A DNA stretch of 64,000 nucleotides from positions 288,001-352,000 of the forward strand of contig OY969814.1 of assembly GCA_963703345.1 (NCBI GenBank), written 5' to 3'. Positions 42,055-48,362 of the stretch are shown here, piece by piece (within the stretch, counting starts at the first letter, position 1; each line of letters begins with the position of its first letter). Source of the DNA: an uncultured Chloroflexia bacterium (GTDB lineage Bacteria > Chloroflexota > Dehalococcoidia > DSTF01 > JALHUB01). The notes under the pieces were generated by a model that saw only the letters and a list, made by a program, of their open reading frames with translations, was not told the origin of the DNA and searched no databases. The position numbers and the translations under genes were made by a program.

Positions 42055-43095
42055 TCAGGAGCCGTCCCAGAGGGCGGTCTGCGCCGAGGGCGGCGGGCCT
42101 TTCGGCGGCAAGCCCAGGTGCTCGTAGGCGCGACGGGTGGCGACTCGGCCGCGGGGCGTCCGCTGGAGGAAACCGACCTGCATGAGGTACGGCTCGTACA
42201 CGTCCATGATCGTGTCCGCTTCTTCGGAGATGGAGGCGGCGATCGTGTCGAGGCCGACGGGGCCGCCGTCGAACTTGTGGATTATCGTCTGCAGGACCTT
42301 GTGGTCGATGTCGTCCAGCCCCAGCTCGTCGATCTCCAGCCGCGCCAGCGCTTCAACGGCTACCTCTTCGGAAATGCGACCGTCCGCCATGACCTGGGCG
42401 TAGTCGCGCACCCGCTTCAGCAGGCGGTTGGCGACGCGCGGGGTCCCGCGAGCCCGTTGCGCCATCTGCTTCAGGCCGCCTTCGTCGACTTCGACGCCGA
42501 GGATGTGGGCGCTGCGTCGGATGATGGCGCCGATAGCCTCCGTGTCGTAGAAGTCGAGCCGGTAGACGGCGCCGAAGCGGTCGCGCAGGGGCGGGCTTAG
42601 CATGGCGTAGCGGGTGGTCGAGCCGACGAGGGTGAAGCGCGGAAGCGAGAGACGCACGCTGCGGGCGCCCGGCCCCTTGCCGAGCACGAGGTCGAGCGCG
42701 AAGTCTTCCATGGCGGGATAGAGGATCTCTTCGATGGCCCGCGCCAGGCGGTGGATTTCGTCGATGAAGAGGACGTCGTCGCGCTGGAGATTGGTCAAGA
42801 TGGCCGCCAGGTCGCCGGGGCGCTCGATAGCGGGACCGGAGGTGACGCGCACGCTCACGCCCATCTCGGCGGCGATGATATAGGAGAGGGTTGTCTTGCC
42901 CAAGCCGGGCGGGCCGTAGAGGAGGACGTGGTCCAAGGGCTCGCCGCGCATCTGGGCGGCGGCCATGGCGATGCGCAGGTTGTCTTTGACTTTATCCTGG
43001 CCTATGTAGTCGTCCAGCCGGTGCGGCCGCAGGGAGGTATCGAGGGCGAGGTCCTCTTCGCGCGGCTTGCCGGAAAGGATGCGATCGGACGTCAT
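42055..43095 (-). CDS. ruvB: Holliday junction helicase RuvB
   Basis: [37 protein letters not shown]. Confidence 0.98.
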
Positions 43096-43098
43096 ACC

Positions 43099-43383
43099 CT
43101 AGCGCTTCTCCCGTCGCAGCTCGATTGTGACGGTGCCTCGGTCCATGCAGTTGAGCTCGACGGAGTCGGGATCGCCCCAGCCCGCCGGGAAGCCGCCGCC
43201 GAACTGGAGCATGACGATGTAAGGGAAGATATCGTGATAGAGGAAGCCGCAGAGGCCGGCGGTGTTGTGGGCGCTGATCTCGAACTCGTCGCCGGCCTTG
43301 TGGCCCATGCTGCAGTTGCCTTTGACGTTGCGGATCGTGGCCCAGACGCGGTTGCCGACCTGCGCGTACTCTCGTTGCTCCAT
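43099..43383 (-). CDS. TIGR04076-like small Cys-containing protein
   Basis: VKG.C..GHK.GD.F, G.C...YH...P, C.D; GGAGG RBS. Confidence 0.8.
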   Translation of the reverse strand: MEQREYAQVGNRVWATIRNVKGNCSMGHKAGDEFEISAHNTAGLCGFLYHDIFPYIVMLQFGGGFPAGWGDPDSVELNCMDRGTVTIELRREKR

Positions 43384-43429
43384 GGTCGCCTCCTCTTGCT
43401 GCAAGCTTCGACGCGTCGAGGCGCGGGTT

Positions 43430-43464
43430 GGAACAAGCGTACTGTGGGCGACAACGGGTGTCAA
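43430..43464 (-). promoter_or_regulatory. Sigma70 promoter with LexA box over the -10 element
   Basis: Minus strand TTGACA-N17-TACGCT; GAAC-AAGC-GTAC at 43431-43442. Confidence 0.7.
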
Positions 43465-43598
43465 CGGTGGCACAGCGGGTTTCTTCTTGGCCTGAAGTCG
43501 GGAGCCGTTCGCGTGGGGCGGGCGTTCTGCCTGTCGGGGAGAGAACGGTTCTGGGTCTGAGATCGGTTGGGTTCGTTCGGCGGTTCGGAGGACATGCG

Positions 43599-43621
43599 AT
43601 TCTGAGGGATGAATCCCTCAG
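43599..43621. repeat. Family D palindrome ATTCTGAGGGATGAATCCCTCAG
   Basis: CTGAGGGAT-NN-ATCCCTCAG; copies at 48533 and 48703. Confidence 0.75.
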
Positions 43622-43752
43622 CCTCTTTGGAAGGTAACCGTCCGGCGGTTCGGCTTTCCCGAACCGCCGGCGCGCGAGGCGCCAGCCGAACGCGGCCAAC
43701 CACGCAGTCGAACGCGAAACCGTTGACCGCGTCCTATTCGTCGAATCGCAGC

Positions 43753-44268
43753 TTATATCTCGCGTGCTAGTTCCGCCAGGGAGCGGCGCGGCGTCGCTCG
43801 CGGCTTCTCCGCCGCATAGCCGATTGGCAACAGCGCCACCGGCATCCGTTCTTCGCCGACGCCAATCGCCTCCTGAACGTCCCTTCGTCGGAACGCGCCG
43901 ACCCAGCACGCCGATAGGCCGAGGTCGTGGGCGGCAAGCTGGGCGTAGGCGCAGGCAATCGTGGCGTCCTGGAGCGCGTAAAGGCTCTCGCCGCGACGAC
44001 CGTACTTCGCACTCGATCTCTCCGGCTCCGCCAGGAAGATGAGCACGACCGGCGCCTGCCCGACGAACTGCTGGTCTGCCGCCGCTTTCGCCAGCGCCTG
44101 GCGGGTCGCGAGAGTCCGCGCCACAACAATCGAATACGCCTGCAGATCGCCGGCGGAAGGCGCGCGATTGGCCGCGTGCAGTATCTTCTCCAGGTCCTCC
44201 GGCGGCACCGGGGCGTCGCCGTACACCCGGACGGAATGCCTTTCTTCAATCAGCGTCATGAACTCCAT
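43753..44268 (-). CDS. Nitroreductase family protein
   Basis: RHSVR.Y, APSAGDLQ, GL..CWVGAF, IGY. Confidence 0.93.
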   Translation of the reverse strand: MEFMTLIEERHSVRVYGDAPVPPEDLEKILHAANRAPSAGDLQAYSIVVARTLATRQALAKAAADQQFVGQAPVVLIFLAEPERSSAKYGRRGESLYALQDATIACAYAQLAAHDLGLSACWVGAFRRRDVQEAIGVGEERMPVALLPIGYAAEKPRATPRRSLAELAREI

Positions 44269-44305
44269 AATTCCCTCACGCGAAAAGAATAGTCGCCGTG
44301 GCGAC

Positions 44306-45184
44306 TCACAGTTGACCTTCCTCGCGACGCTTCGCCTCGGCGCGCAGCCGCGCCTGCTCCCGCAGGTACTTCGTGATCGGCGCCGGCTCCGACGGGTACC
44401 AGGCTTTGCTCCAGTAGTCGAAGTCCGGCCAGTCGTACGGCAGGTTGACGACCGCGTTCGGCTCTTTGATGTCGACCAGCGCCCGCAGCGAGTCGCGGAT
44501 TACGCACATCTGCTCGTCACGGTCGCCGGTGTGCCCCAGCGGATGGCCGAACGGGAACTCGACGCCGACGATCCGTGGCGTTCCGGCCGCCTGCGCCAGA
44601 TACGGGACCATCGTTACGAGGACGGTGCTTATACCCGCTGCTTCGATTGCACGCGCCAGCACGGGCGCGTTCCGGCAGCACTCCGGTCAGACCGGCGTAA
44701 GGAAAGCGCAGTTGACCTCCTCGTCTTTCATGCGCGCGGCGATCTCCGGCCCGTAGCGCTCCCGCCACTCGTCGTTCGACTCCTGGTATCCCATCACCGA
44801 ATAGCTCGTCGGCGCCAGCGAGCCGATCTCGCCCGACGCCTCCAGCTCAAGGAAACGATGGATGGGCAGCGCGACGTTGATGTCGGCCTCCAGATCGCTC
44901 GTGTTGATGTGCAGGTGGGCCACGCCGATCTGCTCCTGACGCACGTCGCGGGGGATGGCGCGATAGGTCGGGTCGCCCCAGGTCGGCTCGCGCCTCTCGC
45001 GTTCAAGGTCGAAGGGCTCCTGCCGGCCCTTGACGTAGGCGCCGGCGGTGCTCAGGAGGGAGAAGCGGCACTCTCTGAGCGGCTTTCGCAGCGGCGCCCA
45101 GGGCACGGGAGCCTTGTCGACGTGCAGGTTGCGGTAGTAGTTCGCCAGCGAAGGCGGCAGCCACTTAAAGCTATCAACGGCCAT
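44306..45184 (-). CDS. PrdB/GrdB-family (glycine/betaine/sarcosine/D-proline reductase B-like) selenoprotein; UGA 44687-44689 read as Sec
   Basis: ORFs 44687..45184 and 44306..44662 share a frame: LTPV-U-PECCRNAPVLARAIEAAGISTV (UxxC); D.N..LP..R..EL...GEIG and F.FGHPLG family motifs. Confidence 0.88.
44651..44670 (-). promoter_or_regulatory. Candidate bacterial SECIS hairpin
   Basis: ACGCGCC-CGTGCT-GGCGCGT beginning 16 nt after the in-frame UGA, with G in the apical loop. Confidence 0.6.
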
Positions 45185-45209
45185 TCTTCACCTCCTGCTG
45201 ATTGCACAG

Positions 45210-46091
45210 CTAGATGCCCAGGACCCGGCGGGCGTTCTCGCCCAGGATCAGGCGTTTCTCTTCGTCTGACAGCGGCAGCGCCTCGATGCGGTCGATATCG
45301 CGTACGGGATGGAACCAGGGCCAGTCGGAGCCGAAGAGGATGCGTTCCGCGCCGAAGCGTCGCACCAGCGCCACCGCCTCCTCGTCCGACATTTGCGGCG
45401 GTTCGATTGTGCCCTCAATGACGCTGGAGCTGTCGAAGTGCAGGTTGGGGAACTCCTCCGCCATCGCCAGCGATTCGTCAATGTAGCCGTTGCCCATGTG
45501 GGCCAGCACGAACCGCAGACGCGGATGCGCCCGCAGGATGCGCGCGAATGCCCGCGGCCGCGAGTGGTCCGACGATTCCGGGTCCATCGGGAAGAAGCCG
45601 CCGTGGGAGAGGACTGGCATCTCGAGCGATTCCGCCTCGGGGTAGAGCGGCCACAGATTGGGGTCGTCCGGGTTGAACCGCTGGGACGACGGGTGCAGCT
45701 TGATGCCGACCGCTCCCTGCTCGCGACAGCGCCTCACCTCGGCGACGACGCCGTCGGGCCCCATCGATGGGTCGACGCTGATGAACGGGACGAGCGACGG
45801 ATGGTCGCGGGCGGTCCTGCAGGTCCAATCGTTGCGGCGCTTAAGGCGTTCGATCATCTGCTGGGCCACCTCTTCGGGCGGGCCCTTGCCGGCCGCCAGC
45901 GCCGCCTCGCGCATGTCGGCGACCGGCGTCATGTTCATCATCGCCGCCTTGTCGACGCCGCCGACGGACATGAGGGCGAGGAGCTCCTGGACGGTGCCGG
46001 CGCAGCCGCTCATGGCCGTGCCGCCGGTCGCCTGGAGGCCGACGGCTGCGCTGGGATAGGTGTGGACGTGGACGTCGATGATGTTGAGCAT
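45210..46091 (-). CDS. Amidohydrolase family (Amidohydro_2) protein
   Basis: IDVHVH, GIKLHP, H.G, LAHMG, FGSDWP. Confidence 0.93.
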   Translation of the reverse strand: MLNIIDVHVHTYPSAAVGLQATGGTAMSGCAGTVQELLALMSVGGVDKAAMMNMTPVADMREAALAAGKGPPEEVAQQMIERLKRRNDWTCRTARDHPSLVPFISVDPSMGPDGVVAEVRRCREQGAVGIKLHPSSQRFNPDDPNLWPLYPEAESLEMPVLSHGGFFPMDPESSDHSRPRAFARILRAHPRLRFVLAHMGNGYIDESLAMAEEFPNLHFDSSSVIEGTIEPPQMSDEEAVALVRRFGAERILFGSDWPWFHPVRDIDRIEALPLSDEEKRLILGENARRVLGI

Positions 46092-46181
46092 ATCTGCCGC
46101 CTGTTTATCGTGTGATGGCTACGCTACGAGATGAGGATAGCGGAGCGTCGAGACTGCGACAAGAGAAGCTGTGGAAGGAGT

Positions 46182-47168
46182 CTATTTCTTCGGCAGACTG
46201 CTGAGCGCGGCGAGGAGGCCCGATGACGCCGCCTCGCGGGCTGTGCGTAGGGCGCTCTTGAAGGCGACGGCGTCGGCGCGGCCGTGGGCGACGATGACGA
46301 CGCCGTTTACCCCCAGCAGCGGGACGCCTCCGTACTCCGCGTACTCCAATCGGCGGCGCATCTCGCGCAGGGCGTCGCGCAGCACGAGGCCGGCGAGTCG
46401 ATACTGAAGCTTGCTTTCGACGACGCGACGGACGCGCGTAAAGACGAACTCCAGCAGCGCCTCGCTCGCTTTGACAATCACGTTGCCTGTGAAGCCGTCG
46501 GTCACGACGACGTTGACAACCCCCTGCGTGATGTCTTTGCCCTCGACGTTGCCGACGAAGTTGAGGGGTGCCTTCTTTAGCTTGTCGTAGACCTCCTGCA
46601 CCAGGTCGTTCCCCTTGCCTTCCTCTTCGCCGATGTTGAGCAGGCCGATGCGCGGCCGCTCCAAGCCGAAGACGCGCTCCATGTAGGCGGAGCCCATGTA
46701 GGCGAACTGGATGAGGTAGGACGGCTTGCAGACCGCGTTCGCGCCGACGTCGAGGATCAGGACGCCGCGGTCGGTTGAGGGGAATATGGCGCCGATGGCC
46801 GGTCGCTCGATGCCGGGAAGACGGCCGAGATTGAGCAGCGCCGAGGCCACGACGGCGCCGGTGTTCCCCGCCGAGACGACGGCGCCCGCCTCGCCGTCCT
46901 TCGCCAGGCGCATTGCGACGTTGATGGCGGCGTCACGCTTCTGGCGCACCGCCTGCGCCGGCGACTCGTCCATGCCGATCGCCTGGCTGGCTTCGACGAC
47001 GTGCAGTCCGGAGGGCTGCGAAGAGTAACGGGCCAGCTCATCCTCGATCAGCCGCCGCGGCCCGACGAGCGCTATCTCCAAGCCCAGGTCGCGCGCCGCT
47101 CGCACCGCGCCGGCAATCGATTCGCGGGGGGCGCGGTCGCCGCCCATAACGTCGAGGGCGATTATCAT
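46182..47168 (-). CDS. plsX: Phosphate acyltransferase PlsX
   Basis: IALD.MGGD.AP, SAGNTGA, RPA, LDVGAN, NIGEE..KG, DGFTGN, HG. Confidence 0.96.
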   Translation of the reverse strand: MIIALDVMGGDRAPRESIAGAVRAARDLGLEIALVGPRRLIEDELARYSSQPSGLHVVEASQAIGMDESPAQAVRQKRDAAINVAMRLAKDGEAGAVVSAGNTGAVVASALLNLGRLPGIERPAIGAIFPSTDRGVLILDVGANAVCKPSYLIQFAYMGSAYMERVFGLERPRIGLLNIGEEEGKGNDLVQEVYDKLKKAPLNFVGNVEGKDITQGVVNVVVTDGFTGNVIVKASEALLEFVFTRVRRVVESKLQYRLAGLVLRDALREMRRRLEYAEYGGVPLLGVNGVVIVAHGRADAVAFKSALRTAREAASSGLLAALSSLPKK

Positions 47169-47171
47169 GGC

Positions 47172-48362
47172 TTACGACTCTCCTTCGGGCGGCCCGGAGC
47201 GGAACTCCTCCCACATGCGTTGTCGCAGGTCGCCGTCAACGAGAACGTCGACGGCGGTGGTGGCCAGCGCCTTCGCGGCGTCGAGCAGGGCGCGGTTGCC
47301 GGCCTCCGAAGCGGCGAGGCGGGCGAAATCGGCGGTGTGGATGTTCACGTCGCGGGCCAGCGCAATCGACGGGTGGATCGTCGGCAGAAGGACGCTGACG
47401 TTGCCGACGTCGGTGCTGCCCAGGGCGCGAGGTCGCGGCGGCTCCGTCGTCTTGCGTCCAAGAGAAGTCATGTTTCGTCGAAAGGCAGCGGCAAGCGCGC
47501 GGTTGGCCCGCAGTGGCGCGTACTGCACGTCATCCCAGCGGCACTCCAGGCGCGCGCCGGTGGCCGTGGCACCGGCCTCGAAGCAGGCAACGACGCGGCG
47601 CTTGAGGTCCTCCAGGTACGCCTCATCCTCGGCGCGCATGAGGAAGACGGCCTCAGAGTGGTTCGGAACGACGTTCGGCATCTGGCCGCCGTCGCTGATG
47701 ATGCCGTGGACGCGGGCGGTCTCGCGGATGTGCTGGCGCAGCGCGGCGACGGCGTTGTAGCCGAAGACGAGGGCGTCGAGGGCGTTTATGCCGGCTTCGG
47801 GACGGCTAGCAGCGTGCGCCTCTTTGCCGAAGTACTCCACCGTCAGGGTCGCGCAGGCAAGCGCGGCCGTCAGGGCGGCGTTGCGCGAGCCGGGATGGAC
47901 GAGCATAGCGGCGTCGAGGCCGTCGAAGGCGCCGCGCTCCGCCATTATCGCCTTGCCGCCGTAGACCTCCTCCGCCGGCGTGCCGATGGCAGCGATGCCC
48001 CCGCCGGTCTCCGCCAGGACGCTCTTCACCGCGACGGCCGCGCCGGTCGAGGCAGCGGCTATCAGGTTGTGGCCGCAGGCGTGGCCCAGGCCGGCGAGGG
48101 CGTCGTACTCGGCGAGGAAGGCGACGCGCGGTCGCTCTTCGCCGCAGGCGGCGCGAAAGGCGGTCGCGAGGTCGCAGAACGGTTGCTCGACGGAGAAGCC
48201 GCGGTCCTGGAGATAAGCGCAGAGCCAGCGACAGGCGCTTGTCTCCTGGAAGCCGGTCTCCGGGTTATCGTGGATGCGGAGGCTGAGGTCGATGAGGGCG
48301 TCTCGCTGCGCTTCGACCTCTTCGATGACGCGGGCCTTCAGTTGTTCGGCGTCGGGCGGCAA
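47172..48362 (-). CDS. M20 family metallopeptidase/amidohydrolase
   Basis: H..PE..FQE, AEYDAL.G.GHACGHN, TPAEE, GSTD.GNVS; TTG start inferred. Confidence 0.92.
   Translation of the reverse strand: MPPDAEQLKARVIEEVEAQRDALIDLSLRIHDNPETGFQETSACRWLCAYLQDRGFSVEQPFCDLATAFRAACGEERPRVAFLAEYDALAGLGHACGHNLIAAASTGAAVAVKSVLAETGGGIAAIGTPAEEVYGGKAIMAERGAFDGLDAAMLVHPGSRNAALTAALACATLTVEYFGKEAHAASRPEAGINALDALVFGYNAVAALRQHIRETARVHGIISDGGQMPNVVPNHSEAVFLMRAEDEAYLEDLKRRVVACFEAGATATGARLECRWDDVQYAPLRANRALAAAFRRNMTSLGRKTTEPPRPRALGSTDVGNVSVLLPTIHPSIALARDVNIHTADFARLAASEAGNRALLDAAKALATTAVDVLVDGDLRQRMWEEFRSGPPEGES

Follow-up and report, generated by a model that had tools for sequence, protein, structure and literature searches.

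Two open reading frames on the minus strand of this contig lie in one frame and are separated by a single TGA, which raises the question of whether they form one selenoprotein gene and, if so, what an enzyme of this kind could be doing here. The window, by which we mean the whole 64,000-nt stretch analysed, comes from a genome that is a single contig of 2.28 Mb, 95.9% complete. Under genetic code table 11 the region breaks into ORFs of 165 and 118 residues. Read through the TGA, it runs from an ATG at 45184 to a final TGA stop at 44308-44306, so that the two ORFs which the earlier note had seen split by a single TGA make up one minus-strand gene of 292 residues, with NCAFLTPV-U-PECCRN around residue 166 (Table 1). 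The motif had been given in that note as TPV-U-PEC; the UxxC is indeed present, but the motif was one cysteine short, being TPV-U-PECC, or UxxCC. The loci most homologous to the gene are labelled Dehalococcoidia or Chloroflexota. Contigs from three DNA runs span the stretch piecewise and were left out of the evidence. A search for a sigma-70 promoter consensus across 43000-47300 found none.

Table 1. Features of the locus, in positions of the window
Feature	Position	Strand	Evidence
Nitroreductase-family flavoprotein, downstream neighbour	43753..44268	-	PF00881 E 5e-31; under every NCBIfam cut-off
Weak terminator-like hairpin with T-rich tail, between selenoprotein gene and nitroreductase	44281..44306	-	4 found vs 2.1 expected
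PrdB-like selenoprotein gene, 292 aa, one UGA read through	44306..45184	-	PF07355 and TIGR04483 profile scores
SECIS-like hairpin, 7-bp stem, 6-nt loop CGUGCU	44651..44670	-	Folding; bSECIS constraints
In-frame TGA, predicted selenocysteine 166 (codon 166), U-P-E-C-C	44687..44689	-	TGA in 80/80 loci; Cys in natural homologs
Ribosome-binding site AGGAGGT, within the 25-nt gap behind the amidohydrolase	45190..45196	-	Sequence; relatives similar
Amidohydro_2 metallo-hydrolase/decarboxylase-fold protein, upstream neighbour	45210..46091	-	PF04909 E 1e-43

It is very likely that the UGA is read as selenocysteine inside a single gene. The earlier note had proposed a hidden selenoprotein and named selA, selB, selC and selD as the genes to look for, and all four were found: profile searches of the genome recovered selA (562 bits), selB (357 bits) and selD (354 bits), all above their cut-offs, and selC is present as a tRNA-Sec with anticodon TCA. 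The selD gene carries one TGA itself, and further apparent selenoproteins are encoded by the same genome. The PrdB-like gene was matched in 27 of the 41 genomes searched, and TGA occupied the Sec site in every relative locus that covered it (29/29, from 30 loci examined). We also examined the best 80 of 523 relatives confirmed in GTDB contigs, which are 48-90% identical to the query; all 80 carried TGA and UxxC, and 56 of these best 80 had UxxCC in the form UP(D/E)CC. Among 28 loci of the phylum, the codon at this site was TGA in 21 and TGC in seven.

Protein databases mostly list truncated forms: gene callers have cut at least 114 of the 120 top-ranking homologs at the Sec codon, so that the whole protein is largely invisible. 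In the five full-length close homologs the Sec site held Cys in three and Asp in two; in 71 distant full-length representatives the column held Cys in 48 and another residue in 23, although the Trp and Gly found there in some distant homologs may represent TGA under other codes. An expectation of Cys or Sec at this site was thus borne out by the TGA column and by most full-length homologs, but not by the Asp forms or by the 23 distant proteins. Two full-length subfamily members (P0017 and P0020) have Asp in place of Sec (TPV-D-ANCC) with the CC retained, and P0017 is nested among TGA-bearing members in the tree described below. It is hardly credible that the TGA is a genuine stop that leaves two separate genes or a pseudogene. 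Gene callers do split nearly all database records, and a GTG lies 7-9 codons past the TGA in close orthologs, but the codons between the TGA and this GTG encode the conserved PxCC, the TGA column is Cys in natural homologs and Sec in PrdB, and a complete Sec machinery is accompanied by covariation in the SECIS.

The 7-bp hairpin that had been noticed 16 nt downstream of the TGA was seen again (ACGCGCC-CGTGCT-GGCGCGT, -12.0 kcal/mol), with covariation and suppressed synonymous change. Its loop has G at position 2 and lies 23 nt from the UGA. Published constraints on bacterial SECIS elements are a loop of 3-9 nt, a G in the first two loop positions, a spacing of 16-37 nt and a folding energy of -7.5 kcal/mol or lower (PMC13188914), and our own script, used instead of bSECISearch, placed the hairpin within all four of these limits. 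An equally stable SECIS-type hairpin followed 1.2% of 3000 random genomic TGAs, and 7.8% passed the -7.5 limit; the folding energies of 45-nt and 73-nt regions were no better than those of shuffles (z -0.98 and +0.81). Columns 23 and 36 of the SECIS were paired in all 80 of the best loci (CG 14, TG 17, TA 49, CA 0), with an Ala to Val change on one side and a synonymous change on the other, and the entropy of 4-fold sites was 0.57 within codons 167-179, the SECIS window (7 sites), versus 1.45 outside it (81 sites), although the 80 sequences are kin and the p-value is therefore overstated. When 29 mixed sequences were scored, 80% of cells could pair, whereas shuffling gave 68% and slid controls no more than 62%; RNAalifold retained four of the seven stem pairs across the same number of mixed sequences.

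The relatedness to PrdB and GrdB that had been claimed for the product held up, in that the protein matched PF07355 above its cut-off (E 3.6e-7, 30.2 bits against 22) and carries Sec in UxxC at the PrdB column. Over residues 26-252 the core is collinear with, and 35% identical to, PrdB references from Terrisporobacter, Enterococcus and Ligilactobacillus, with Sec at the same column and a Cys at +3. By sequence, however, it is not PrdB proper. It scored 172.5 bits against the PrdB model TIGR04483, whose curated cut-off is 300 and to which a reference prdA-linked PrdB scored 423.7, and it fell below the cut-offs (65-800 bits) of all the GrdB/GrdF/GrdH models (TIGR01917, TIGR01918, NF040794 and NF040795), at 36-53 bits. 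In a sample of the phylum, TIGR04483 matched 77 of 401 Chloroflexota genomes at E<=1e-25, in no case above the cut-off. The query is 292 aa long whereas PrdB has 241, and it has the motifs HLHIN, UPECC and MGYQ where PrdB has HGGYD, UGTCH and MGGG. To GrdB/GrdF/GrdH it is homologous over their C-terminal half and shares the Sec nucleophile in UxxC, but compared with GrdB (~430 aa) it lacks the first ~200 profile positions, and it has UxxCC rather than UxxCxxC. A quick, midpoint-rooted tree of 84 rows, for which 31 of the 80 loci were hand-chosen to span the range, placed the query in a clade of 37 rows, most of them from Chloroflexota, and canonical PrdB in another, each clade with an SH-aLRT of 100. 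Members of the subfamily share specific invariant residues in the N-terminal region, a WGDP-loop and the C-terminal region. Order-level relatives (L044-L047, L050 and L051) encode a second type of PrdB-like selenoprotein of ~410 aa, the C-terminal domain of which (~160 aa) has no Pfam match.

The genome was also searched for the partners of the known reductases. No match was found to PF09338, the PrdA/GrdE profile, or to PF04723, the GrdA profile, although the same searches were positive in 34 of 301 and 11 of 101 genomes of the class, respectively. A tblastn search of the genome with PrdA, PrdC, PrdD, PrdE, PrdF and PrdH returned nothing, while PrdA recovered GrdE-type loci as a positive control; the PrdC model gave only a 28-bit fragment, and no racemase was found. 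The genome is 95.9% complete, so the absence of PrdA, GrdE, GrdA, PrdC and PrdH is not absolute. The query genome thus differs from proline reductase systems in that prdA, prdH and prdC were not found, and from the glycine, sarcosine and betaine reductase systems in that GrdE and GrdA were not found. Subfamily carriers at E<=1e-50 numbered 29 among the 301 class genomes (one of them, G260, is unpublished), and none of the 29 was among the 34 PF09338 carriers. A few Dehalococcoidia families had GrdE-type PF09338 genes (e.g., G045, G059 and G063), as many as five in one genome; GrdA was present in those carriers that were checked, and there was no overlap with subfamily carriers in the sample.

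These results extend to the whole genome the earlier description of the gene as an orphan, and they agree with its placement outside Stickland metabolism, for which the score below the PrdB cut-off, the separate clade and the lack of detectable Stickland partner genes all speak. That the protein is nonetheless a true D-proline or glycine reductase subunit is very improbable: the 35% identity to prdA-linked PrdB and the identical UxxC position are what could be expected of such a subunit, but they are outweighed by the TIGR04483 score and the tree, and by the failure to find PrdA, PrdC, PrdH, a racemase or GrdA in the genome. A plsX gene upstream was considered as a possible GrdD and rejected; this neighbour is a true PlsX (TIGR00182, 343 bits, over the cut-off).

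A different way to keep a partner would be to suppose that the protein is the selenium-bearing half of a reductase with two subunits, the second being unlinked and either unrelated to PrdA/GrdE or too diverged from them. The characterised relatives act as complexes, and in the predicted structure a long C-terminal helix (269-291) could serve for docking. We consider such an arrangement unlikely. No neighbour was conserved in 104 loci, and the genome yielded zero PF09338 candidates. A fusion search over 22 homologs, most of them longer, gave a single HTH fusion; a separate search for longer homologs found no fused form, although this second search is weak evidence.

We then considered the two flanking genes. 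The tight placement of the gene between an amidohydrolase and a nitroreductase, pointed out from the sequence at the outset, corresponds to gaps of 25 nt and 37 nt. The amidohydrolase has only weak PDB relatives. The terminator-like element in the downstream spacer was similar only in G002 and G003, and in other relatives the gap can be as short as 3-11 nt. The amidohydrolase lay 12-62 nt upstream, in the same order and on the same strand, in 13 genomes: this one, seven more of the genus, four of the family, and G039, whose possibly misassigned contig has 85% identity. The nitroreductase was downstream in 12 genomes, 3-68 nt away in 11 of them and behind two inserted genes in G010; in G012 the locus is cut on the nitroreductase side by the contig end. 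The trio is tightly packed across five genera of one family-level clade, while its outer flanks differ between genomes. A small Cys protein of the TIGR04076 family is encoded at 43099-43392 (minus strand), just upstream of ruvB, and is linked to the trio in only part of the genus.

Outside this clade the arrangement was not seen. The trio was adjacent only where the ortholog shared at least 71% identity with the query, which points to a single origin, and the amidohydrolase neighboured 11 of the best 80 of 523 loci, all in the same clade. In G019, G021 and G028 all three genes are present but unlinked, whereas G011, G030 and G031 carry the selenoprotein without an ortholog of either neighbour. 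Conversely, in G017 the amidohydrolase and nitroreductase lie ~160 nt apart and the genome has no PrdB-like match, although that assembly is 83% complete and rich in frameshifts. Amidohydrolase orthologs were found in 10 of the 29 carriers in the class (absent in 19), versus 2.4 expected, and nitroreductase orthologs in five (absent in 24), versus 0.7 expected, but kin among the carriers are not independent; the ten best amidohydrolase matches in the class were all in subfamily-carrying genomes. Shared ancestry may explain this co-occurrence, since five of the ten are close kin and in the other five the genes stand apart or on different contigs. The 104 loci outside the clade gave 130 non-redundant immediate neighbours, in which no Pfam family occurred more than three times; any amidohydrolase family appeared at most once and nitroreductase twice, in a sample that is Chloroflexota-heavy, relied on crude ORF calling and covered immediate neighbours. 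In two distant loci an unrelated nitroreductase lies just upstream.

The simplest reading is that the trio is an operon-like block that formed once in the lineage and was then inherited, in which the amidohydrolase and nitroreductase probably ride along as co-transcribed passengers. The earlier note had inferred a module of hydrolase, Sec-reductase and flavin reductase, and had proposed to test conservation of the three-gene neighbourhood; the tight block is real within one family-level clade, but it is missing from every more distant member, exists as a pair in G017, and leaves most carriers without the orthologs, so that no linkage was found in independent lineages and co-occurrence is enriched rather than obligate. 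In its full form this module would have the amidohydrolase make or unmask a substrate, the selenoenzyme reduce it, and the nitroreductase pass electrons from NAD(P)H via FMN to the Se-S bond. The constant order and strand in 13 and 12 genomes amid varying flanks, the excess co-occurrence (10/29 and 5/29) and the two distant loci with a nitroreductase immediately upstream lend this idea some appeal, and yet we regard it as rather unlikely, given the single origin implied by the 71% limit, the insertion in G010 and the G017 pair without a PrdB-like gene, the three genomes in which the genes are unlinked and the three with neither ortholog, the 19 and 24 carriers of 29 without orthologs, and the lack of recurrence among the 130 other neighbours.

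We conclude, with a probability of roughly 60%, that the locus contains one Sec-decoded gene for a PrdB-related, stand-alone selenol/thiol oxidoreductase that works without a pyruvoyl subunit and does not need its neighbours. In C. difficile, the Sec of PrdB attacks proline that is bound by the pyruvoyl group of PrdA, and a U151C variant is inactive (PMC11229817); the cycle of proline reductase ends in a selenenylsulfide (PMC10298544). By analogy with PrdB and GrdB, the selenolate of Sec166 would attack a small substrate at an electrophilic atom, Cys169 would release the product and leave an Se-S bond behind, and a general cellular dithiol system would re-reduce that bond. In the role of PrdA, the invariant N-terminal, WGDP-loop and C-terminal additions of the subfamily may give the pocket its shape. 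Since a pyruvoyl group that could activate an amine is lacking, the substrate would have to bring a polarised bond of its own, such as an onium C-N or C-S bond, a C-halide bond or an S-S or S-O bond. A role as a plain disulfide, sulfoxide or peroxide reductase would fit equally well.

Relatives that act on betaine or fluoroacetate are described as lacking the pyruvoyl group, GrdI and FarE being pyruvoyl-free variants, yet they keep a GrdE-type second subunit (PMC10838667). Since this subunit is kept even in pyruvoyl-free reductases and is missing here, the available parts of the literature offered no precedent for C-X cleavage by a lone chain. A bolder proposal would make the UxxCC subfamily a single-chain, pyruvoyl-free selenoenzyme of reductive cleavage, the capping loops of which replaced PrdA and which here recruited the amidohydrolase and the flavin reductase into a catabolic operon. 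This is quite doubtful, but if it were true, the locus would give a first clue from genome data to what the abundant orphan PrdB-like selenoproteins act on.

For re-reduction of the stand-alone oxidoreductase that we favour, the genome has genes for a thioredoxin and an FTR-like protein at other sites. The best thioredoxin match lies ~2.5 kb upstream of the tRNA-Sec gene on the same strand (G000:C1:158890-159192 and 161712-161805). A ferredoxin-thioredoxin reductase beta-type protein with C-H-U (L169:1642-2085, plus strand) and an Rdx/SelW protein with CxxU (L168:1306-1551, minus strand) were found in a crude and perhaps incomplete scan for other selenoproteins in the genome; both are probable further selenoproteins and possible electron donors.

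The structural model of the PrdB-like protein was confident (pLDDT 94.4) and places the predicted Sec166 between a strand (159-163) and the beginning of a helix (167-182) in an alpha/beta fold. In sequence searches, neither the protein itself nor a profile of 22 sequences retrieved a credible relative from the PDB, and Foldseek returned no match at E<=0.001. The best VIA-align Z score was 8.5 (rmsd 3.2-4.3 over 140-145 aligned residues); the matches were generic alpha/beta folds, none of which stood out, and this is uninformative as to function or fold novelty. When a natural Cys homolog was used as the query, the ESM Atlas matches were GRDB clusters and, at 0.79, one cluster without a name.

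Orphan PrdB-like UxxC proteins are a kind already catalogued in metagenome surveys since 2005, where they rank among the most abundant selenoprotein families. In the Sargasso Sea, the UxxC 'proline reductase PrdB' was the third most abundant known selenoprotein family, with 42 genes (PMC1088965), and the GOS survey listed 235 such sequences, the family being defined by PF07355 and a UxxC Sec (PMC2398784, including its Table 2); PrdB selenoproteins have also been recorded in Anaeromyxobacter and Geobacter (PMC1794560). The present protein resembles this environmental family in being PrdB-related, with Sec in UxxC and a PF07355 score above the cut-off, and in belonging to a kind abundant outside clostridia; relative to that family as the surveys describe it, its subfamily appears to be set apart by UP(D/E)CC, the WGDP insertion and a C-terminal extension of ~40 aa. 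The available parts of the Sargasso and GOS surveys (PMC1088965 and PMC2398784) contain no function test of these selenoproteins. The subfamily occurs in two genomes listed by BSepDB as rich in selenoproteins, and a term search for the family names in a BSepDB supplement gave no match. Our search of the literature on orphan or Chloroflexota PrdB, which left most subscription papers outside its scope, found no paper devoted to the subfamily. Because the neighbours are local, the locus does not solve the substrate question of the orphan PrdB-like family. It does offer good ground for tests: a genome nearly complete on one contig in which no PrdA, GrdE or GrdA was found, with natural Cys forms that are easily expressed and a confident model for a family without a PDB sequence match.

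Two more TGA-containing genes were observed outside the window. A MerB-like protein (PF03243; L171:1361-1828, minus strand, G000:C1 near 177554) has two TGA codons, one in frame within WYGQ-U-GFES and another past IVHS, with protein-like sequence beyond the latter, and possibly contains two Sec residues; it scores under the SaoL cut-off. The other gene encodes the large subunit of a group-3b-like (sulfhydrogenase alpha) [NiFe] hydrogenase (G000:C1:933582-934856, plus strand; L167:2583-3857), in which TGA replaces the first Cys of the N-terminal nickel motif (SRI-U-GICSCGH) and the C-terminal motif is DPCLSC. In [NiFeSe] enzymes, Sec is found in the C-terminal motif. Across the 16 loci covering the hydrogenase site, five genomes of the genus had TGA and the other 11 had TGC, and a GGCCAC-GTT-GTGG hairpin followed the codon in the TGA forms only, so that the TGA looks like a recent Cys-to-Sec change, possibly a more novel one than the PrdB-like gene itself.
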